From IMG/VR virus record IMGVR_UViG_3300029536_000014, positions 1 through 46,001 of that record: a stretch of 46,001 bases of DNA; one strand, 5' to 3'. Made by a program: the position numbers and the translations under genes. Source of the DNA: a virus. Below, one piece after another: positions 1 through 46,001 of this stretch. A model generated the notes under the pieces. It had not been told where the DNA came from. It saw only the letters and a program-made list of their open reading frames with translations, and did not search any database. How positions within the stretch are numbered: the stretch's first letter is position 1; each line of letters begins with the position of its first letter.

Positions 1-1
1 A

Positions 2-427
2 ATCAATGCGCTACTGTCACAGCTTAGCTACAAATGTGGATTTAGCAGTGGTTATTTTGTGTTTAACGAGAAAACTGGAATGGTGACGGCTACGCAGGTG
101 GAAGCGGACGACCGCCGGACAATTCAGTTTATTAAGGACGTTCGGGATAAGCTGGAGGATTGTCTGAATGGCGTAATCTATGCACTCAATGTTTTTGCCG
201 ACCTGTACGATCTAACTCCGGTGGGCGTTTATGAAACAACATACGACTTCGGAGACATAACCTACAACAGAGAAGAAGACCGTGCAAGATGGTGGCAGTA
301 TGTTGTACAGGGAAAGGTTCCAGCATGGCTGTTTTTCGTAAAATTTGAAGGAATGACCGAGGAAGATGCGAAAGCAATGGTCAAAGAAGCTCAGCCAGAC
401 GAACCAACACTATTCGGAGAGGAGTAA
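2..427 (+). CDS. Portal protein, C-terminal part (continuation of 44884-46001 across the wrap)
   Basis: Same frame as the ORF opening at ATG 44884 (44884 to 45904 is 340 codons). Combined product is 481 aa, immediately downstream of the terminase. Size and position fit an SPP1 gp6-type portal. Confidence 0.85.
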   Translation: MNALLSQLSYKCGFSSGYFVFNEKTGMVTATQVEADDRRTIQFIKDVRDKLEDCLNGVIYALNVFADLYDLTPVGVYETTYDFGDITYNREEDRARWWQYVVQGKVPAWLFFVKFEGMTEEDAKAMVKEAQPDEPTLFGEE

Positions 428-2185: not shown

Positions 2186-3415
2186 ATGCTTAGCCCAGAA
2201 TATTTACGCCGGATAACAGAGGGCAGCGAACAAATTGCCGAAGAACTGCATCAATATATCATCTCTGAGATCGTGTCGAGAATGATGGCAAGAATCGGCA
2301 GGGGTGAGGATTATATTCTGACCAATGCCGATGCGTGGAGAATCAGAACACTACAGGAATCCGGTGAGCTACTAGAGGACATTCTGGCAGAATTATCCAA
2401 ATACACCAAACGTGAACAGCAGGAACTCCTTGAAGCGTTTGAAGATGCCGGAATCACTGCTCTCGATTATGATGATAAGATATACAAGGCGGCAGGATTA
2501 AGTCCGGTACCGCTCGAACAGTCGCCAGCTATGATAAGACTCATGGAGCGAAATATGCTTGCGACTATGGGAGAGTGGAAGAACTTCACAAGAACGACTG
2601 CAAGTGCCGCTCAAAGGCTCTATATTGAGCAGTGCGACCTTGCATACAACCATGTAATGACTGGGGCGGTTGGGTATACGCAAGCCATCAAAGAGGCAGT
2701 TAATAACGTTGTGAGTGATGGTGTTACGGTCACATATCCATCTGGCAGAAAAGACACGATTGAAACAGCAGTCGCACGTTCTGTTAGAACTGGTGTGGCT
2801 CAGGCTACTGGAGATATATCCCTCAAACGCATGGAAGAGATGGGCTGGGATTTAGTTCTGGTCAGTGCTCACATGGGAGCCAGAACAGGTGACGGTGGTG
2901 AGAACCCGGGAAATCACGCATGGTGGCAAGGAAAGATATACTCTCGTTCTGGCAAGAGCAAGAAATTTCCGCCGTTCTCATTGACCGGATACGGAACAGC
3001 AAGCGGACTGTCAGGAGTTAACTGTCGGCATAGCTTTGGGGCAAGTGACGGGGAATTTAATCCTTATGCAGAATTATCAGCACAGGATAAAGCCGACAAA
3101 GGTAAACAGTACGAAAAGGAACAGCGGCAACGTACTTACGAGCGAAGAATCCGAAAGGCAAAGAGAGAAGTCCTTGGAATGCAAACGGCGGTTGACAACT
3201 GCAAGGACGAACAGGCAAAATTCGCATTACAGCAAGACCTTGACAGGAAGTCTTATCTTTTGCAGAAACAAAATGCTGCATACAAAGAGTACTGCAAGCA
3301 GAATGGCCTGAGAGAATTGCAAGACCGGCTTATGATCGCCAAGTGGAACCGCCAGAATGCCGCAAAAGTCAGAGGAGCGGCAAAACGATATAAGACAGCA
3401 AAGGGGATTGACTGA
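2186..3415 (+). CDS. Head morphogenesis / minor capsid protein, Phage_Mu_F (SPP1 gp7) family
   Basis: 409 aa with RBS AGAGGTG. HMGARTGDGGENPGNHAWWQGKIY and GVNCRHSF match the MuF-domain pattern. The C-terminus is a basic coiled-coil. Confidence 0.85.
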   Translation: MLSPEYLRRITEGSEQIAEELHQYIISEIVSRMMARIGRGEDYILTNADAWRIRTLQESGELLEDILAELSKYTKREQQELLEAFEDAGITALDYDDKIYKAAGLSPVPLEQSPAMIRLMERNMLATMGEWKNFTRTTASAAQRLYIEQCDLAYNHVMTGAVGYTQAIKEAVNNVVSDGVTVTYPSGRKDTIETAVARSVRTGVAQATGDISLKRMEEMGWDLVLVSAHMGARTGDGGENPGNHAWWQGKIYSRSGKSKKFPPFSLTGYGTASGLSGVNCRHSFGASDGEFNPYAELSAQDKADKGKQYEKEQRQRTYERRIRKAKREVLGMQTAVDNCKDEQAKFALQQDLDRKSYLLQKQNAAYKEYCKQNGLRELQDRLMIAKWNRQNAAKVRGAAKRYKTAKGID

Positions 3416-3801
3416 TGGATAGATGGGAATATTACAATCCGAATCCTACGGGCGATCGAGTCGGAGATTGTACTGTCCGGGCAATATGCAAAGCAACCGG
3501 ATTTGATTGGGAAACGGTATTTACCGGACTGATGGTGCAGGCGTGCGCGCTGTCAGATATGCCAAGTGCAAATTATGTCTGGGGTGCGTATCTTTATAAG
3601 CATGGATACAGGCGTAAACTGATAGAACAGTCAGAACGATATATCTATACAGTCAATGATTTTTGCACAGACCATCCGACAGGTACATACATTCTCTGCA
3701 TAGATGGTCATGTGGTGACGGTACAGAACGGCAAATATTACGATACATGGGATAGTGGTAATGAGATCCCGGTATACTACTGGGAAAAGGAGAGCAAATG
3801 A
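3415..3801 (+). CDS. Hypothetical protein, possible papain-like thiol peptidase fold
   Basis: 128 aa, ATGA-coupled to the MuF gene. Cys19 (VGDCTVRA), His98 (DGHVV) and Asp (YDTWD) are spaced like a Cys-His-Asp triad. Family not recognised. Confidence 0.6.
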   Translation: MDRWEYYNPNPTGDRVGDCTVRAICKATGFDWETVFTGLMVQACALSDMPSANYVWGAYLYKHGYRRKLIEQSERYIYTVNDFCTDHPTGTYILCIDGHVVTVQNGKYYDTWDSGNEIPVYYWEKESK

Positions 3802-4103
3802 GCATATCAGAATTTGTACAAGTATTCCTCTCGATCTGCGGAGGAGTGTCTATTGTCGGAGGAGCGGTGGCTGTAATTCTTAAGTGGATTACTCCGGCGT
3901 TTCGACTTAACAAGCGAGTTGAGACACTGGAAGAACACGACAAACGAGATTACGAGAGTCTTCAGAGGATTGCGGAACGAGATTCATTGATTCTGGAAGT
4001 GTTATCAACCATGTTGGATAGTCAGATTAGTGGGAATAATGTAGAAGAATTAAAAAAAACAAAACAGAAGCTTACAAATTATCTTGCACAGAATCAGCGT
4101 TAA
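3798..4103 (+). CDS. Membrane-anchored coiled-coil protein
   Basis: 101 aa. N-terminal TM helix FLSICGGVSIVGGAVAVILKWI followed by a charged helical region; ATGA overlap with the upstream gene. Confidence 0.6.
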   Translation: MSISEFVQVFLSICGGVSIVGGAVAVILKWITPAFRLNKRVETLEEHDKRDYESLQRIAERDSLILEVLSTMLDSQISGNNVEELKKTKQKLTNYLAQNQR

Positions 4104-4126
4104 TTGCATTAATAAGAGGTATGCTC

Positions 4127-4327
4127 ATGAAATTATATGTGTTCACGAAAAAAGATATAGACAGGTTCTTGATAGAGTGTAATTTCACACCGGACGAAGA
4201 AAGACTGTTCCGGCTGAGATGTCAGGAACACACGCTTGAATACTGTGCTGAACAGATGAATGTGAGTATATCCACAGCGAAACGGTTAAGTCGGAGGGTA
4301 AACAATAAAATAATTAAAGTATGCTAA
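4127..4327 (+). CDS. Stand-alone sigma-70 region-4-like / LuxR-type HTH protein (candidate late-gene regulator)
   Basis: 66 aa from ATG 4127 (AAGAGG 7 nt upstream; ATG 4121 is too close to the RBS). TPDEERLFRLRCQEHTLEYCAEQMNVSISTAKRLSRRVNNKI has the region-4 HTH pattern. Confidence 0.6.
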   Translation: MKLYVFTKKDIDRFLIECNFTPDEERLFRLRCQEHTLEYCAEQMNVSISTAKRLSRRVNNKIIKVC

Positions 4328-4334
4328 AAAGTAA

Positions 4335-4366
4335 GGAGAGGATATTTCTACCCTCTCCCATTTTTT
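4335..4366. terminator. Bidirectional intrinsic terminator between convergent genes
   Basis: GGAGAGG (4335-4341) pairs with CCTCTCC (4352-4358), then CATTTTTT. An A-rich tract upstream gives a U-tract on the other strand. Confidence 0.75.
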
Positions 4367-4535
4367 AACAAAAATCTTCTTTTACAACCCTTTCAAGTAG
4401 TTTTATCAAATATTCTGGCGGAGTTCTTCTTTCTGCCTCCCAGTCTTCTATGGTTCTCTTGGGTATCTCGTACTTATCAGAAAAAACCTTCTGACTCAAT
4501 CCGGTAAGTGATCTTAATTCTTTTATTGTCATCAT
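4365..4535 (-). CDS. Small XRE-type HTH protein (56 aa), last gene of the antisense moron
   Basis: Not in the track (<60 aa). The reverse strand reads MMTIKELRSLTGLSQKVFSDKYEIPKRTIEDWEAERRTPPEYLIKLLERVVKEDFC. RBS GGAGA is upstream of ATG 4535. The pattern is antitoxin/Aca-like HTH. Confidence 0.7.
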   Translation of the reverse strand: MMTIKELRSLTGLSQKVFSDKYEIPKRTIEDWEAERRTPPEYLIKLLERVVKEDFC

Positions 4536-4542
4536 ACTCTCC

Positions 4543-4830
4543 TTAGTCTAAAACTTTTAAATACTGTCTGCGACCGTTCATGTTGTTATCCAGAGCATAA
4601 AAACAAGGATTTTTATTACCCGAAAGGACTTCATTTATTTCATAGTTCCATCCCCAGGGAGCCGTTACCATTAAATTCCCCATGGCGTTTTCGAACGTTT
4701 CCCAGCCTTCTGGAATTTCTACTGTCATTTCATCCCAACACGTTGCTGCACTGTGCGGTGCTCCGTATGTATATACGTTCCTTTTTTCGGCAGATAAAAC
4801 ACCATAATTGCAATAAATTTTAATTTTCAT
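4543..4830 (-). CDS. Hypothetical protein (95 aa), moron gene 2
   Basis: ORF with RBS AGGAGGAA upstream (reverse strand of 4832-4845); tightly packed between 4847-5167 and 4365-4535. No family recognised. Confidence 0.65.
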   Translation of the reverse strand: MKIKIYCNYGVLSAEKRNVYTYGAPHSAATCWDEMTVEIPEGWETFENAMGNLMVTAPWGWNYEINEVLSGNKNPCFYALDNNMNGRRQYLKVLD

Positions 4831-4846
4831 GTTGTATTCCTCCTTT

Positions 4847-5167
4847 TTATAAAACGCGATATCTCACGATATCTTCAACTTTCGCAGGACTTCCATACCA
4901 GTATTTTTCATCTGGATTCCATTTAAGCCCAAATTCTTTTAAAGTCTTTCTGCAATAAAAAGTATTTCCAGAAACGACTCCATCACCAAGATTAAAAAGA
5001 ACTTCACATCCGTCAAGGCAAGCGTTGAAATATTTGCCAAGTTTTGCAAGCTTGAGATCTTCTTTGGCTTTTTCCCATGCTCTTTTAAGAGCTACGGAAA
5101 TTGTGCATTTACACTGTCTTACGATTCCCCATGCGTTTTTCATGATTTCTGACTTGTTATACTTCAT
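4847..5167 (-). CDS. Hypothetical protein (106 aa), moron gene 1
   Basis: ATG 5167 is preceded by GGAGGTAGG. It is the first gene downstream of a sigma-A-type promoter. No family recognised. Confidence 0.65.
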   Translation of the reverse strand: MKYNKSEIMKNAWGIVRQCKCTISVALKRAWEKAKEDLKLAKLGKYFNACLDGCEVLFNLGDGVVSGNTFYCRKTLKEFGLKWNPDEKYWYGSPAKVEDIVRYRVL

Positions 5168-7933: not shown

Positions 7934-7944
7934 TTTGATGAAAC

Positions 7945-7980
7945 ATGTACCACAACTTTTTGAAGGTTCTGTGATACAAT
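7945..7980 (+). promoter_or_regulatory. Conserved bipartite phage promoter element, copy 2
   Basis: ATGTACCACAACTTTT (7945-7960), a 12-nt spacer, then TGaTACAAT (7971-7980). It lies directly upstream of the non-coding RNA locus and the scaffold/capsid genes. Confidence 0.6.
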
Positions 7981-7986
7981 ATATTC

Positions 7987-8490
7987 GTAGGGAAGATTTG
8001 TAAGCAGAAATGCTTGACATAGACATTTTTATTGCTTTCCTCCTTTCTTTAAGCAGATGCGTGTCCTTAATAGAAACAGGTTCGGGGTGGAATCTGGAGG
8101 TTGAAAAGCGGATGCAATTTCCGACACGTATCATTGCCGCTAGTGCATGGCGGCATACCTCCTTGTGAGCATATAACTGAACAGTGAAATCCAACCCGTG
8201 CAGAGGTGTGCGGCCGTATAGGCGGTGTTGACGTAGCCCGAAACGTCTCGTGTTTAGGCATAGCACGATAAATACCTTGCTAACCCGGGAATCCGGGTTA
8301 TGTGGAATGTACGCTAGTGGAAAACTGACAGGGTCGCGCTCTGGTCTCCGGTTCGATTCCGGGCATTCCGCTTTGATTTGGTTAGAATTACGCTGTCTGT
8401 ATACAGATGGTCTATGATTCGACTGAATTTATCTCATGAGAAAAGGTTATTGCTTATCCTGCTGTCTGGTGTCCGGATCAAAAAGCATAA
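7987..8490 (+). ncRNA. Candidate large structured non-coding RNA (about 0.5 kb), class unassigned
   Basis: No credible + strand ORF. Nested helices: 8002-8015 (GAAA loop), 8083-8090/8191-8198, 8096-8101/8157-8162, 8135-8140/8150-8155, 8230-8247, and a perfect 8-bp hairpin at 8281-8300. Located next to a tRNA. Confidence 0.45.
8303..8371 (+). ncRNA. tRNA-like module lacking a canonical anticodon arm
   Basis: 7-bp acceptor stem TGGAATG/CATTCCG. T-arm TCCGG-TTCGATT-CCGGG (8347-8363). An AGTGG D-loop motif is present. The central 37 nt cannot form a D-stem plus a 7-nt anticodon loop. Confidence 0.45.
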
Positions 8491-8562
8491 TGAAATGTAG
8501 CTCAGTGGTAGAGCAACATCCGCATAGGGTGCGTGTCGGCGGTTCGATTCCGCCTATTTCAT
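8491..8562 (+). tRNA. tRNA with anticodon CAU (Met or Ile2 type), 72 nt, CCA not encoded
   Basis: Cloverleaf folded by hand: acceptor TGAAATG/TATTTCA; D arm GCTC-AGTGGTA-GAGC; anticodon arm ACATC-CGCATAG-GGTGC; variable loop GTGTC; T arm GGCGG-TTCGATT-CCGCC. Unusual G33 and an A27-C43 mismatch. Confidence 0.7.
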
Positions 8563-8639
8563 TACCCTGCCAGTGGTCTAACTGGCTTAATCCACTTACC
8601 TGCGGCGGCAGGTCAATAAACACGACCAGGAGGATATAT

Positions 8640-9272
8640 ATGCAGAAACTTATTGACACATTAAAATCATTTGGAATTGAGATCCCGGAGGACAAGCAGG
8701 CAGATGTAAAAAAATCACTCTCTGAGCATTATAAGAATGCAAAAGAAGTTGCGAAGACTCTGTCAAAAGTCGAGGGAGAACGTGATGACTGGAAAGAACG
8801 CGCTGAGACAGCAGAGGAAACCTTAAAAGGCTTTGACGGTATCGACCCGGCAAATGTTAAGACCGAGTTAGAGACCTGGAAACAGAAAGCGGCAGATGCA
8901 GAGAAAGAATTCAATGCGAAAATCTATGACCGTGATTTCTCAGATGCTCTGAAAGCAGCACTCGATGATGTTAAATTTTCAAGCGAAGCGGCAAAGAAAT
9001 CAGTCATGGCAGACATCAAAGAAGCAGGTCTTAAGCTGAAAGACGGCAAAATCCTTGGGCTGAACGATCTGATTGAGCAGATGAAACAGTCTGACGCATC
9101 CGCTTTCGTGGATGAATCTCAGCAGCAAGCTCAGCAGAATCAGGCAAGATTTACCACTCATGTTGGACAGCAGCAGACACCGGGAAGCATGACAAAGAAG
9201 GAAATCGAAGCGATCAAAGACCCATCTGAGAGACAGGCTGCGATTGCTCAGAATATCCAGCTATTCCAGTGA
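8640..9272 (+). CDS. Scaffolding protein (Phage_GP20-like)
   Basis: 210 aa from ATG 8640 (AGGAGG 7 nt upstream); the track start 8436 reads through the tRNA. Highly charged helical protein with a Gln-rich tail, directly upstream of the capsid gene. Confidence 0.8.
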   Translation: MQKLIDTLKSFGIEIPEDKQADVKKSLSEHYKNAKEVAKTLSKVEGERDDWKERAETAEETLKGFDGIDPANVKTELETWKQKAADAEKEFNAKIYDRDFSDALKAALDDVKFSSEAAKKSVMADIKEAGLKLKDGKILGLNDLIEQMKQSDASAFVDESQQQAQQNQARFTTHVGQQQTPGSMTKKEIEAIKDPSERQAAIAQNIQLFQ

Positions 9273-39988: not shown

Positions 39989-40303
39989 ATGCTGACAAGG
40001 AATAAAAAGCTGAAAGACTACGGTATTCCGGCAGAGGACATAGAAAAACTGAATACGATGCTGAAAGACTTCCCGGCAGAGTACGGATACCTGCTTTCCA
40101 GTGCTGCCTTGTCAGCTTGCCCGAAAAACACGGTGATAGCGGATATGGTTATTGAAAACATCCTACACCGGAAAAGCTACAGGAAAATCAGCAAAGAAAG
40201 ATATATCCCGATGAACCCGAAAGACTTCTACGGATACAGGCGCAAGACCGTCGCTGTACTGTATGAGAGAATGCGGTTGTTTGGAGTGTGGGAGGAAAAA
40301 TAA
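39989..40303 (+). CDS. Hypothetical protein (possible transcription regulator)
   Basis: 104 aa with RBS AAAGGAG and a basic C-terminal half. Located in the region where late activators are often encoded; no family recognised. Confidence 0.55.
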   Translation: MLTRNKKLKDYGIPAEDIEKLNTMLKDFPAEYGYLLSSAALSACPKNTVIADMVIENILHRKSYRKISKERYIPMNPKDFYGYRRKTVAVLYERMRLFGVWEEK

Positions 40304-43005: not shown

Positions 43006-43010
43006 AATTA

Positions 43011-43038
43011 GAGAGTCGGTATTTACCGGCTCTTTTTT
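43011..43038 (+). terminator. Intrinsic terminator closing the early region
   Basis: GAGTCGG / CCGGCTC stem with a 6-nt loop, followed by TTTTTT. Confidence 0.8.
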
Positions 43039-43057
43039 AGCACAAAATTCCTCAAAC

Positions 43058-43093
43058 ATGTACCACAACTTTTCCGCCAACCTATGATAGAAT
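43058..43093 (+). promoter_or_regulatory. Conserved bipartite phage promoter element, copy 3 (upstream of the terminase)
   Basis: ATGTACCACAACTTTT (43058-43073), a 12-nt spacer, then TGaTAGAAT (43084-43093). Lies right after a terminator and 54 nt before the terminase start. Confidence 0.6.
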
Positions 43094-43146
43094 ATACTCA
43101 GAAGTGTTACTATGGGATTTTATAGCTTAATTCAGAAAGGATATGA

Positions 43147-44718
43147 TTGGATGTTGATAGGATGGCAAATGATCAGAATTTAAATAATAGAGCGGCGACA
43201 CAGTTTCGAAGCGGTGAGGAAGCGGTGAGAAATGGGAAAAAAGGCGGTATCGCATCTGGATATTCTAGGAGACAAAAAAAAGCCCTTTCTGATTATGTGA
43301 AAATTATAGCTGAAAGCCCTGCATCAAGTACTGCAAAAAAGAAACTTGCAAAAATGGGGATTGCTGACGAAGACGCAAATAACATGGCAGTCGTAGCAAC
43401 TTCTCTGTATAAAAAAGCGGCAGATGGAAATATACAGGCTATCGAAAAATGGGAGCAGCTAACAGCAGCTTCAAAAGACGATGATGAAAAATATGAACTT
43501 CCTGCCAGAGTACTTGGCAAGGCGTTCGTGGATATTAACCGACAGATTAAGCCTAATATTGAATATGTATTTGAGGGCGGTCGTGGTGGCCTAAAATCGT
43601 CGTTTGTAGCCTTTAAGATTGTTGAGCTTATCAAGAATAATCCCCAGATGCACGCCTGCATTACAAGACAAGTAGCCGGTACTCTGAAAGATTCTGTATA
43701 TGCTAACATGAAATGGGCTATCAATGAACTGGGATTGATGGAAGAATTTGAATGCAAGGTGTCGCCACTTGAGATCAAGTATATTAAGACAGGGCAGACA
43801 ATATACTTCCGTGGTCTGGACGATGAAACCAAACTGAAATCTATTAAGCCGGAATTTGGATATATCGGAATCCTTTGGAAAGAAGAAAAAGACCAGATGA
43901 AGGGAGATGCTCAGGAACGTTCTGTTAATCAGTCAGTACTTCGTGGCGGCGATGAATCCTATGATTTTTCATCGTATAACCCACCAAAATCAAAATCAAA
44001 CTGGGTAAACAGGATCAAGCTCACACCTAACCCGAAAAGAGTTATTCATCATTCGAGTTATTTGGAAGCCCCGGCGGAGTGGCTCGGACAGAAGTTTATT
44101 GACGATGCAGCACATCTGAAAGAAATCAATCCAGAAGCCTATGAACATGAATACCTGGGTGTTCCGAATGGCGATGGTGGAAACGTATTTGAATACCTAG
44201 AAATCAGAGATATTACAGATGAAGAAATTAGCCGCATGGATCGCATTTTTGCTGGTGTAGATTTTGGATGGTATCCTGACCAGTTCTGCTATCTCCGAAC
44301 TTATTACGATTCTGCTAGAGAGAAAATATATCTGATTGACGAATTGTATGTAAATAAATGGAGCAACTCCAAGACCGCTGATTGGATCAAGAAAAAAGGC
44401 TATGACGATTATACGATGATATGTGATTCTGCGGAGCCTAAGTCCGTGAATGATTTCCGGGACGCCGGACTTCCTGCCAGAGGAGCAATCAAAGGGCCGG
44501 GAAGTATCGAGTATGGTTTTAAGTTCTTACAGACTAAGACACTTGTCATTGACCCGAAGCGGACACCGAACGCATACAAAGAAATTACAGAATATGAGTA
44601 TGATCGGGACAAAGAGGGAAATGTAATAAGCGGTTATCCTGATGGAAACGATCATGCAATTTCGGCACTCAGGTATGCTTATGAGCCGTTATTTAACAGG
44701 AGGGGGTACAGTGCATAA
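43147..44718 (+). CDS. terL: Terminase large subunit (PBSX/XtmB-type) with an N-terminal small-subunit-like extension
   Basis: 523 aa from TTG 43147 (GAAAGGA upstream), or from ATG 43162. The TerL core starts near aa 125 (YVFEGGRGGLKSS is Walker A-like; WKEEKD). The N-terminus GGIASGYSRRQKK...AADGNIQAIEKWEQL is TerS-like. Confidence 0.85.
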   Translation: MDVDRMANDQNLNNRAATQFRSGEEAVRNGKKGGIASGYSRRQKKALSDYVKIIAESPASSTAKKKLAKMGIADEDANNMAVVATSLYKKAADGNIQAIEKWEQLTAASKDDDEKYELPARVLGKAFVDINRQIKPNIEYVFEGGRGGLKSSFVAFKIVELIKNNPQMHACITRQVAGTLKDSVYANMKWAINELGLMEEFECKVSPLEIKYIKTGQTIYFRGLDDETKLKSIKPEFGYIGILWKEEKDQMKGDAQERSVNQSVLRGGDESYDFSSYNPPKSKSNWVNRIKLTPNPKRVIHHSSYLEAPAEWLGQKFIDDAAHLKEINPEAYEHEYLGVPNGDGGNVFEYLEIRDITDEEISRMDRIFAGVDFGWYPDQFCYLRTYYDSAREKIYLIDELYVNKWSNSKTADWIKKKGYDDYTMICDSAEPKSVNDFRDAGLPARGAIKGPGSIEYGFKFLQTKTLVIDPKRTPNAYKEITEYEYDRDKEGNVISGYPDGNDHAISALRYAYEPLFNRRGYSA

Positions 44719-44883: not shown

Positions 44884-46001
44884 ATGGGACTTATAACAAC
44901 ACTAAAAAGGTGGTTTAACATGATTTTCAAAAAACAAGCCGAAGAGGACTTTAATATCCAGGCGTCAGAATTCCCGGAGATGGAATCACTGATTAACCGG
45001 TGTGCGAACATCTATAGGGGTGCGCCGGAATGGCTGGATGATGAGGATAATATCAAGACGATCAATTTCGCGAAAACTGTCTGCTCAGAGACAGCACGGC
45101 TCACAACGCTGGCAATCGGCATCCAGATCGGCGGTTCCGCAAGGGCTACATGGCTTCAGAAACAGATTAACAAGGTATATTTTCAGATACGTCACTGGGT
45201 AGAGTACGGTTGCGCCTATGGAACGGTTTTCATCAAGCCGAACGGTGAGAGCCTTGATGTATTTACTCCGGCAGATGTGATGATTGTGGATTATGACAAT
45301 CAGGAAATAAAAGGGATTATATTCAAGGATTCTTATACTGTTGGACGAAAATACTATACACGGCTTGAATATCATCGTTTTGTTGAAACCACCGTGGACG
45401 GCGTGACAACTTACCCATATTATGTTTCTAATAGAGCCTATGTATCAAAATCCCCTCAGTCAATTGGCAATAAGATTGACCTTAAACAGACCAAATGGGC
45501 TGATCTCATGGCAGATACGCCACCGATTCTCAAGGCAAACGGAGAAAAGCTGGACGGACCGCTTTTCGGAGTTCTACGGACGCCACAGGCGAACAATGTG
45601 GATATTAGCACACCACTGGGCTTGCCGGTTTTTGCTGAAGGCATTGAGGAGCTGGGAGACATTGATGTTGCGTATAGTCGGAACGCGGGGGAAATTAAAG
45701 ACTCTCAGAAGATTGCTCTGTTAGATGATAGACTACTGATGCCAAGCGGTACACCTGTTTCAGCCATGTCACCACGAGGTATGGAGAACAGGCGAAACGA
45801 GATGAAATTGCCGCATTATGTCAAGAACGTGTTCGGACAGGACGAAAAAGAGTTTTATCAGGAAATCAATCCACAGCTCAACACGGATGCACGGTTGGCC
45901 GGAATCAATGCGCTACTGTCACAGCTTAGCTACAAATGTGGATTTAGCAGTGGTTATTTTGTGTTTAACGAGAAAACTGGAATGGTGACGGCTACGCAGG
46001 T
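44884..46001 (+). CDS. Portal protein, N-terminal part (runs off the window and continues at nt 100-427 via the wrap)
   Basis: ATG 44884; the frame stays open to the window end, so it is absent from the ORF track. I translated it by hand: MGLITTLKRWFNMIFKKQAEEDF...SQLSYKCGFSSGYFVFNEKTGMVTATQ. Confidence 0.85.
   Translation, partial: MGLITTLKRWFNMIFKKQAEEDFNIQASEFPEMESLINRCANIYRGAPEWLDDEDNIKTINFAKTVCSETARLTTLAIGIQIGGSARATWLQKQINKVYFQIRHWVEYGCAYGTVFIKPNGESLDVFTPADVMIVDYDNQEIKGIIFKDSYTVGRKYYTRLEYHRFVETTVDGVTTYPYYVSNRAYVSKSPQSIGNKIDLKQTKWADLMADTPPILKANGEKLDGPLFGVLRTPQANNVDISTPLGLPVFAEGIEELGDIDVAYSRNAGEIKDSQKIALLDDRLLMPSGTPVSAMSPRGMENRRNEMKLPHYVKNVFGQDEKEFYQEINPQLNTDARLAGINALLSQLSYKCGFSSGYFVFNEKTGMVTATQ
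45903..46001. repeat. 99-nt terminal overlap of the window (copy of nt 1-99)
   Basis: Base-by-base identity with nt 1-99; lies inside the portal ORF, so it marks circular closure rather than a biological repeat. Confidence 0.95.

Follow-up and report, generated by a model that had tools for sequence, protein, structure and literature searches.

What switches on the late genes of a temperate phage that carries the same promoter-like element at three distant places in its genome? The question is raised by a 46,001-nucleotide stretch of viral DNA (IMG/VR record IMGVR_UViG_3300029536_000014, positions 1 to 46,001; hereafter the window), in which a conserved upstream box followed at a fixed distance by an extended -10 element precedes the terminase and portal genes (P1), the gene of a MuF-like minor capsid protein (P2) and an RNA locus with the scaffold and capsid genes (P3). 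A first inspection of the DNA (the original prediction) had described these elements as a set of late promoters recognised by a phage-encoded activator or by a sigma-like factor. On the basis of a comparison with related phages, we consider it reasonably probable that the three elements are late promoters read by a small phage activator, most likely RegA, the predicted product of the open reading frame (ORF) at 39989-40303.

An exact search for the 16-mer ATGTACCACRACTTTT returned exactly three sites in the window, at the predicted positions 2150-2165, 7945-7960 and 43058-43073, all on the + strand. As had also been noticed, the 16-mer is the same in the second and third copies and departs from it in the first by a single change, A to G at position 10; the four bases that precede it are AAAC in copies 2 and 3 and AAAT in copy 1 (AAAY overall). 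When up to three mismatches with ATGTACCACRACTTTT were allowed, two extra weak matches appeared, both on the - strand; 0.81 matches are expected by chance at this threshold, and five were reached in none of 100 shuffles. Each box is followed by an extended -10 (TGATATACT at 2177, TGATACAAT at 7972 and TGATAGAAT at 43085) with the TG, one base and TAnnnT hexamer of sigma-A promoters. Counted from the last T of the box to this TG, the spacer is 11 nt long in each copy and not 12 nt, as first given. When every TGnTAnnnT of the window was examined for a box-like 21-mer upstream, P1, P2 and P3 were the only sites. P1 is thus made of the box AAAC+ATGTACCACAACTTTT (43054-43073, + strand, hereafter type A, spanning about -47 to -27 from the predicted start), an 11-nt spacer (43074-43084) and the extended -10 at 43085-43093, with a predicted start near 43100. 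P2, which is copy 1 (2146-2185, + strand), joins AAAT+ATGTACCACGACTTTT to its -10 through an 11-nt spacer in which the MuF ribosome-binding site is located, and P3, which is copy 2 (7941-7980, + strand), has the box AAAC+ATGTACCACAACTTTT, an 11-nt spacer and a predicted start near 7987.

The remark that no TTGACA-like hexamer lies upstream was also correct: at 17-nt spacing the -35 position reads ACAACT or ACGACT, which matches the consensus at two to three of six bases. Consensus promoter scans of the window did not list P1, P2 or P3 among their sites, and canonical TTGACA-17-TATAAT candidates are located at the lysogeny switch, at about 26.9-27.9 kb. Each promoter has one box, with no second copy (up to three mismatches) near any of the sites.

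To follow the element in other phages, 80 loci were retrieved with the large terminase subunit (TerL) protein, which avoids selection on the box itself, and type-A loci were classed by their leader sequence rather than by the box. Among the 21 distinct type-A terminase upstream regions compared in this way, the 22-nt stretch TCAAACATGTACCACAACTTTT is invariant in all 21. Within the 11-nt spacer up to nine of these sequences differ per column and the length never varies; TG and TA...T are nearly invariant, the changes falling at non-critical positions of the hexamer. An invariant box, a free spacer and a preserved TG/TA...T make up the conservation pattern of a bipartite promoter. The exact box was found in more than 119 IMG/VR stretches with 111 distinct flanking sequences, nearly all of them in the same three contexts. 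Among the matches listed, the -10 hexamers are TATACT, TATGCT, TATATT, TATAGT, TAGAAT, TAAAAT and TACAAT, a variation confined to positions 3-5 that keeps TGnTAnnnT. Box scans of IMG/VR returned at least about 120 stretches for box A and as many for box B (see below). In agreement with the original prediction, box, spacer and extended -10 hence recur at the late-gene sites of relatives.

About half of the TerL relatives (89-97% amino acid identity) bear an unrelated box at the same terminase position and in the same register. Apart from type A, we distinguished in IMG/VR loci type B (core AAAAGTGGTAGAGAG, full element AAAAGTGGTAGAGAGCTA ... TGGTATTAT), type B2 (AAAAGTGGTGTAGAGGTA) and type C (core AAAATGTGGGGACAAC, full element AAAATGTGGGGACAAATTTTT ... 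TGGTAATAT), in Dulem virus 35 type D (core AAAGGTGTATACAAAA, full element AAAGGTGTATACAAAAA ... TGATACAAT), and at three late sites of a Faecalimonas prophage type E (AAATGAGACCAAA). In A, C and D boxes the core terminates in ACA exactly 17 nt before TG; in B boxes the distance is 16-17 nt. The E sites precede the terminase gene, the scaffold gene and, between them, a 140-amino-acid ORF that lies ahead of MuF; this middle site has a perfect TATAAT without TG. A de novo repeat search in 17 distant prophage loci revealed a clear multi-copy box in the E-type locus L323 only, most of the others giving noise.

The exchange of boxes follows a pattern. In 18 of 18 IMG/VR-type loci, window included, the terminase-site box is of the same type as the scaffold-site box, 8-11.5 kb away (A/A in 7, B/B in 10 and C/C in one); the sites also match in Dulem virus 35 (D/D) and in the Faecalimonas prophage (E/E/E), and no mismatch was encountered. 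This matching does not simply reflect two clonal lineages, since TerL identity is not tied to box type: TerL is 97% identical to that of the window in the B/B2 loci L132 and L137-L139, and 89% identical in the type-A loci L175, L184 and L191. Matched box types at distant sites point to a phage-encoded reader that acts in trans and speak against a host factor. A stricter covariation of the kind 'one phage, one box' was tried and failed, as B and C phages keep box A at MuF, and the analysis was therefore conducted site by site.

The same observations bear on the simplest alternative, in which P1, P2 and P3 would be ordinary extended -10 promoters used by the host polymerase alone or with a host sigma factor or regulator, the box being a UP-like or host-factor site. 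An extended -10 is able to function without a -35 and the box does start with an A-tract, but a host-factor site would be expected to stay constant, and here phages with about 90-97% identity in their structural genes have unrelated sequences instead of the box, with changes in step at two distant sites. In addition, the box has no match to the sporulation or extracytoplasmic function (ECF) sigma consensus sequences with which it was compared. We thus judge this explanation quite improbable.

Which phage protein could read the box? In B, C, D and E phages an ORF of about 100 codons precedes the terminase-site box, from which its end is 0-20 nt away; in the E-type locus L323 its stop codon overlaps the box. 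These fast-evolving ORFs, designated Reg, are homologous at only 26-37% identity; in two further loci (L318 and L328) a single box with an extended -10 lies immediately 3' of Reg. The only Reg homolog of the window is the ORF at 39989-40303 (+ strand), which matches the B, C and D Reg ORFs with E values of 5e-13 to 7e-18 and encodes RegA, a basic, all-alpha protein of 104 amino acids from a family without annotation. Clustering of the Reg homologs from 310 loci gave 155 hits for RegB, 85 for RegA, four for RegC and one for RegD. RegB is always found with box B or B2, RegC with C and RegD with D, and box B2 accompanies a distinct RegB subclade that differs by about 15 substitutions. RegA is the sole paralog, encoded 1.6-3.9 kb upstream, at all 13 type-A terminase sites whose upstream sequence extends over 3.6 kb or more. 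Phage MT835739, with C boxes at the terminase and scaffold sites and box A at MuF, possesses two Reg paralogs, and Dulem virus 35 one paralog and one box type. Two ORFs had been named as candidate regulators in the original prediction; the one at 39989-40303, whose family paralog tracks the box type, is the probable activator, while the one at 4127-4327, which is 92-98% identical across box types A, B and C, did not hold up as the determinant of box specificity. The ORFs adjoining P1 (41721-42152, 42149-42796 and 42793-43005) were also considered as regulators and set aside, as they belong to no regulator-like families; the one of 215 amino acids was found in only four loci, which makes it an accessory gene.

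Thirty diverse Reg members have no match in Pfam at E <= 1, four members scanned against NCBIfam have none there, and the window protein has none in Pfam, PHROGs or NCBIfam. An exhaustive profile search collected 271 clusters at 50% identity, nearly all of about 100 amino acids, and at 90% identity single RegA clusters comprise 1,500-2,000 member sequences. RegA was modeled by AlphaFold2 as a six-helix bundle (pLDDT 88, pTM 0.82). A comparison of this model with BFVD gave a sole match at E <= 0.001, one uncharacterised phage protein, and a profile search of the PDB sequences found nothing. Reg proteins are basic (median pI 9.1) and conserved at the N-terminus (MRTRxKxLxDYG) and at the start of the last helix (DFYGYRRK), with variable helices 2-5, a distribution that would fit a conserved docking surface and a variable DNA-reading surface.

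We propose that the host sigma-A RNA polymerase uses the extended -10 TGnTAnnnT, for which no usable -35 is present, and that Reg, a product of the early rightward operon, would bind the approximately 20-bp box at about -47 to -27. Once bound, Reg would substitute for the -35/region-4 contact or re-target it, either as a class-II-type activator or as a substitute for sigma region 4. The early operon would stop at the terminator at 43010-43041, and the late genes would stay silent until RegA accumulates; P1 would then drive the terminase and portal genes, and P3 the RAGATH-21 RNA, the tRNA-Met, the scaffold and capsid genes and those that follow. The fixed spacing, the strand specificity and the lack of a -35 fit this model of Reg acting with sigma-A, in which the start of transcription at the elements, the binding of Reg to its box and the mode of contact with the polymerase are deduced from sequence comparison. 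As for the two kinds of reader first envisaged, neither a full sigma factor (regions 2 and 4) nor a phage RNA polymerase was found among the ORFs scanned, which covered part of the small ORFs and gave only a 68-amino-acid region-4-like fragment, so that 'activator' describes the reader better than 'sigma-like factor'.

A more far-reaching proposal, which we put forward tentatively and hold to be rather unlikely, is that Reg is a structurally new and exchangeable '-35 reader' for the host sigma-A polymerase, a module of about 100 amino acids whose conserved ends (MRTRxK...DYG and DFYGYRRK) would dock on the polymerase and whose variable centre would set the DNA specificity, with cassettes being swapped among co-circulating gut phages, regulons being orthogonal and some phages running two circuits. 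If true, the swapping of Reg-box pairs could, for example, avoid cross-activation by co-resident prophages or hijacking by satellites, and the two orthogonal circuits would use box A at MuF and box B or C for the terminase and scaffold promoters.

Several observations weigh against RegA as the reader of box A or limit the strength of the argument. The loci that were compared belong to closely related phages and are not independent. In the window, RegA is 2.7 kb away from P1, with about ten small ORFs and a terminator between them. In types B-E, Reg adjoins the terminase-site box, and part of the Reg-box association could therefore be linkage; the match with the unlinked scaffold site is, for this reading of the sequences, a stronger argument than adjacency. 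The Reg model has no significant structural match in the PDB, the best being an insignificant helix-turn-helix overlap with KorA. Box A is present at MuF in seven B-type loci that apparently lack RegA, and two other B-type loci have RegA but no box at MuF. Finally, the -10 of P2 overlaps the translation start region of MuF, where conservation could reflect the ribosome-binding site.

P2 is the least secure of the three elements. Its hexamer, TATACT at 2180-2185, abuts the MuF ATG at 2186, a caveat that had been raised from the outset and that we confirm. A start 7 nt 3' of this -10 falls inside the MuF coding sequence, and P2 would consequently serve only the genes after MuF. Relatives can moreover do without the P2 module: in about 13 of 31 B-type loci and in one A-type locus the junction is translationally coupled and has no box. 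Presence of RegA and presence of box A at MuF are not correlated in B-type phages. P2 is thus doubtful as a productive MuF promoter, and in some genomes it may be an orphan left by recombination or be read by something else.

One candidate for such another reader is a 68-amino-acid protein encoded at 4121-4327 (+ strand), with weak similarity to sigma-70 region 4 (PHROG 1190, 3.9e-6; Sigma70_r4, 0.007; TIGR02937, 3e-4). The promoters would be real in this alternative, the 68-amino-acid protein would read box A in a manner analogous to LtrA, and Reg would serve boxes B-E or have another role. All phages examined that have retained box A at MuF possess its ORF, B and C types without RegA among them, and late activators of the LtrA type are known (Quiles-Puchalt et al. 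2013, PMC3753634). However, A, B and C phages share this protein at 92-98% identity, the recognition helix being no exception, and it therefore cannot set the differing specificities of the terminase and scaffold boxes. It would also leave the RegA of 13 of 13 type-A phages without a target, and since its gene lies within the late region, 3' of P2, nothing would start the circuit. We consider this explanation unlikely. A split sigma factor formed by the ORFs 3798-4103 and 4121-4327 was rejected, the 101-amino-acid ORF having no match to sigma region 2.

The MuF-like minor capsid protein 2 itself (2186-3415, + strand) is identified by Pfam Phage_min_cap2 with E = 9e-76 and an alignment that begins at residue 2. 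Its start codon is ATG in the window and ATA in about half of the relatives, which have the same strong ribosome-binding site, an in-frame TGA just 5' and no other start codon nearby; ATA would be either a rare initiation codon or the sign of deliberately weak translation. Just 5' of P2, a perfect 11-bp hairpin (2108-2133, z = -5.2) covers the stop codon of a 58-amino-acid ORF and is kept in the relatives that have the P2 module. It is followed by an A-rich rather than U-rich run and is therefore no canonical terminator.

The surroundings of P1 call for a different comparison. As first described, a terminator is situated upstream of it: the intrinsic terminator at 43010-43041 (+ strand, -15.1 kcal/mol, z = -5.2, followed by UUUUUU), which ends the early rightward operon just 5' of P1. 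At the B and C terminase sites, the extended -10 lies within a very stable hairpin (-30 kcal/mol, z = -4.5 to -5; 2925-2985 in both L168 and L198) with a U run after it, and variants of this hairpin show compensatory changes (CCCTAG/CTAGGG versus CCCCAGT/ACTGGGG). It appears to be the terminator of the early operon with the late promoter nested inside; late transcripts would begin in the loop and thereby escape termination.

This arrangement suggests another possibility, namely that the box is the loading site of a Q-like antiterminator and that late expression occurs by read-through. The overlap of a -30 kcal/mol hairpin and its U run with the terminase-site element in types B and C, and the terminator just upstream of P1 in the window, are what such a mechanism might leave. 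Yet the 5' arm of the B/C hairpin lies upstream of the predicted start, P3 has no terminator, and TGnTAnnnT stands at a constant distance from the box at every site, which is the prediction for an initiation element. In the window, the terminator is separate from the promoter and the leaders are unstructured (43100-43170 and 7987-8060 fold no better than shuffled sequences, z = +0.6 and +1.3), so that type-A sites do not offer the read-through terminator downstream of the promoter, and antitermination of the Q type is weakened. We regard it as very unlikely.

Some loci also illustrate how the element may be passed on. In L107, L115, L101 and L035 one flank of box A is swapped precisely at the edge of the box, and two of these loci, L107 and L115, no longer have the extended -10. 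This suggests that box A is a short-homology crossover point between modules. One could then ask whether the repeat is non-regulatory altogether, either a junction for the recombination of modules or a signal at the RNA level, and the exact exchange of flanks in L107/L115 and L101 as well as the optional nature of P2 in relatives would agree with it. Use as a junction leaves unexplained the -10 at fixed distance, the strand bias and the matching of types between sites, and structure prediction yields no stable RNA fold over the element in the window; we give this explanation hardly any chance.

If the elements are late promoters read by a Reg protein, how do they compare with known late switches? 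Late transcription of Gram-positive phages can be controlled by the Ltr superfamily, which includes RinA, ArpU, LtrA/Sigma70_r4, LtrB/DUF1492 and LtrC (Quiles-Puchalt et al. 2013, PMC3753634). The targets of these proteins, which were described in phages of Staphylococcus, Enterococcus and Streptococcus, are direct repeats located 5' of a single terS promoter (PMC3753634). Like Reg, the Ltr proteins are small phage proteins; their genes stand at the end of the early operon, just 5' of the terminase promoter, they are needed to switch on the morphogenesis operon, and many mutually unrelated families occupy this genomic slot. Reg has this position in B, C, D and E phages; in the window its gene lies 2.7 kb upstream of P1. 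Reg differs from them in that Pfam and NCBIfam place Reg outside the phage_rinA, phage_arpU, Sigma70_r4, DUF1492 and phi55 ORF34-like families, in that its predicted fold has no sigma-4-like match, and in that a single box of about 20 bp overlaps the -35 region here, always 11 nt away from an extended -10, and serves two or three promoters. The architecture resembles that of a class II activator or of a T4 MotA-type promoter, the fit to the Ltr systems being poorer.

The middle promoters of T4, which depend on MotA and AsiA, combine a good sigma-70-type -10 with a phage-specific box that stands at a set distance from it, in place of the -35. The likeness to our elements is one of architecture only, with a phage-specific box in place of the -35: no homolog of MotA or AsiA was found among the window ORFs scanned against Pfam or PHROGs, the box here reaches further upstream, to about -47, and the host is a Firmicute. 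Gram-positive phages also offer late promoters without a -35 that require a small activator of the phage, such as the A3 promoter of phi29 with p4 and the TP901-1 promoter with Alt. The binding sites of p4 and Alt are located further upstream, each protein serves a single promoter, and no homology of Reg to either was detected. A late activator with its cognate promoters is a well-known kind of system. The details that are new are the Reg family, the architecture of a single box at fixed spacing at several promoters and the coordinated exchange of cassettes; as far as sequence can tell, we are likely dealing with a new family of phage late-gene activators and not with a new kind of system.

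The gene contexts given for the three sites in the original prediction were all confirmed by Pfam, PHROG, Rfam and tRNA matches. The first and last 99 nt of the window (1-99 and 45903-46001) are identical, so that the assembly is a circle of 45,902 bp. Downstream of P1, TerL (43147-44718, + strand; Pfam Terminase_3 and Terminase_3C, PHROG terminase large-subunit families) is encoded first, and a portal candidate ORF of 481 amino acids follows, running from 44884 across the circular junction to 427. TerL has an N-terminal extension of about 120 amino acids (43147-43500) that corresponds to PHROG 2412, of unknown function, and that is possibly a domain similar to a small terminase and fused to TerL. 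The terminase of Dulem virus 35 (L310, 1-1893) is annotated as two pieces with a small ORF between them.

Downstream of P3, a 450-nt non-coding stretch contains a RAGATH-21 RNA (8056-8132, + strand; Rfam RF03097, 86.9 bits), which would lie in the leader of the P3 transcript, and a tRNA-Met (CAT anticodon, 8490-8563, + strand), and is followed by the scaffold and major capsid genes. RAGATH-21 begins 60-110 nt 3' of the -10 of P3 and occupies about the same place in box types A, C, D and E; it was also located in L310 (10502-10578), L323 (18459-18542) and L309 (1306-1390, - strand), and it was undetected in two B-type loci. This location hints at a leader RNA that acts in cis within the head-gene operon; literature searches on RAGATH-21 and on late regulation in Blautia phages returned nothing relevant. 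The tRNA-Met lies inside a mechanically listed ORF (8436-9272) whose Pfam scaffold match begins only at residue 76, and the scaffold gene therefore probably starts 3' of the tRNA.

The early region includes genes for a CI-like repressor, a DUF927 primase-helicase, a DnaG zinc ribbon, an ERCC4 nuclease and a C5 methylase. The late region is interrupted by a cassette of three genes on the minus strand (4334-5167) with its own terminator (4334-4359) and an Xre-type helix-turn-helix ORF (4365-4535). ORFs of the same PHROGs (25567, 2104, 28198 and 8305) are found in L127 (1555-2813, - strand) between the terminator and the box A of P1, and the cassette looks like a mobile moron or a toxin-antitoxin-like module.

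The phage of the window is a temperate siphophage of Lachnospiraceae (Blautia-type), a host placement based on a defective Blautia fusiformis prophage and on other Lachnospiraceae prophages. The Blautia fusiformis prophage (L312, NZ_JAJEQQ010000019.1) encodes RegA at 95% identity; its early region joins the tail genes directly, the terminase-to-capsid region being deleted, and it is thus uninformative on the boxes and useful for the assignment of the host.

This group of phages is very common in human gut metagenomes, and if our proposal is true, their late switch would now have a name. A protein family without detectable relatives would then join the late activators of Gram-positive phages, and at least five natural activator/promoter pairs, seemingly orthogonal, would become usable in Clostridia, where genetic tools are scarce. 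That distant promoters exchange their boxes in step also constitutes a clean natural experiment on how the coherence of a regulon is maintained in mosaic phage genomes.

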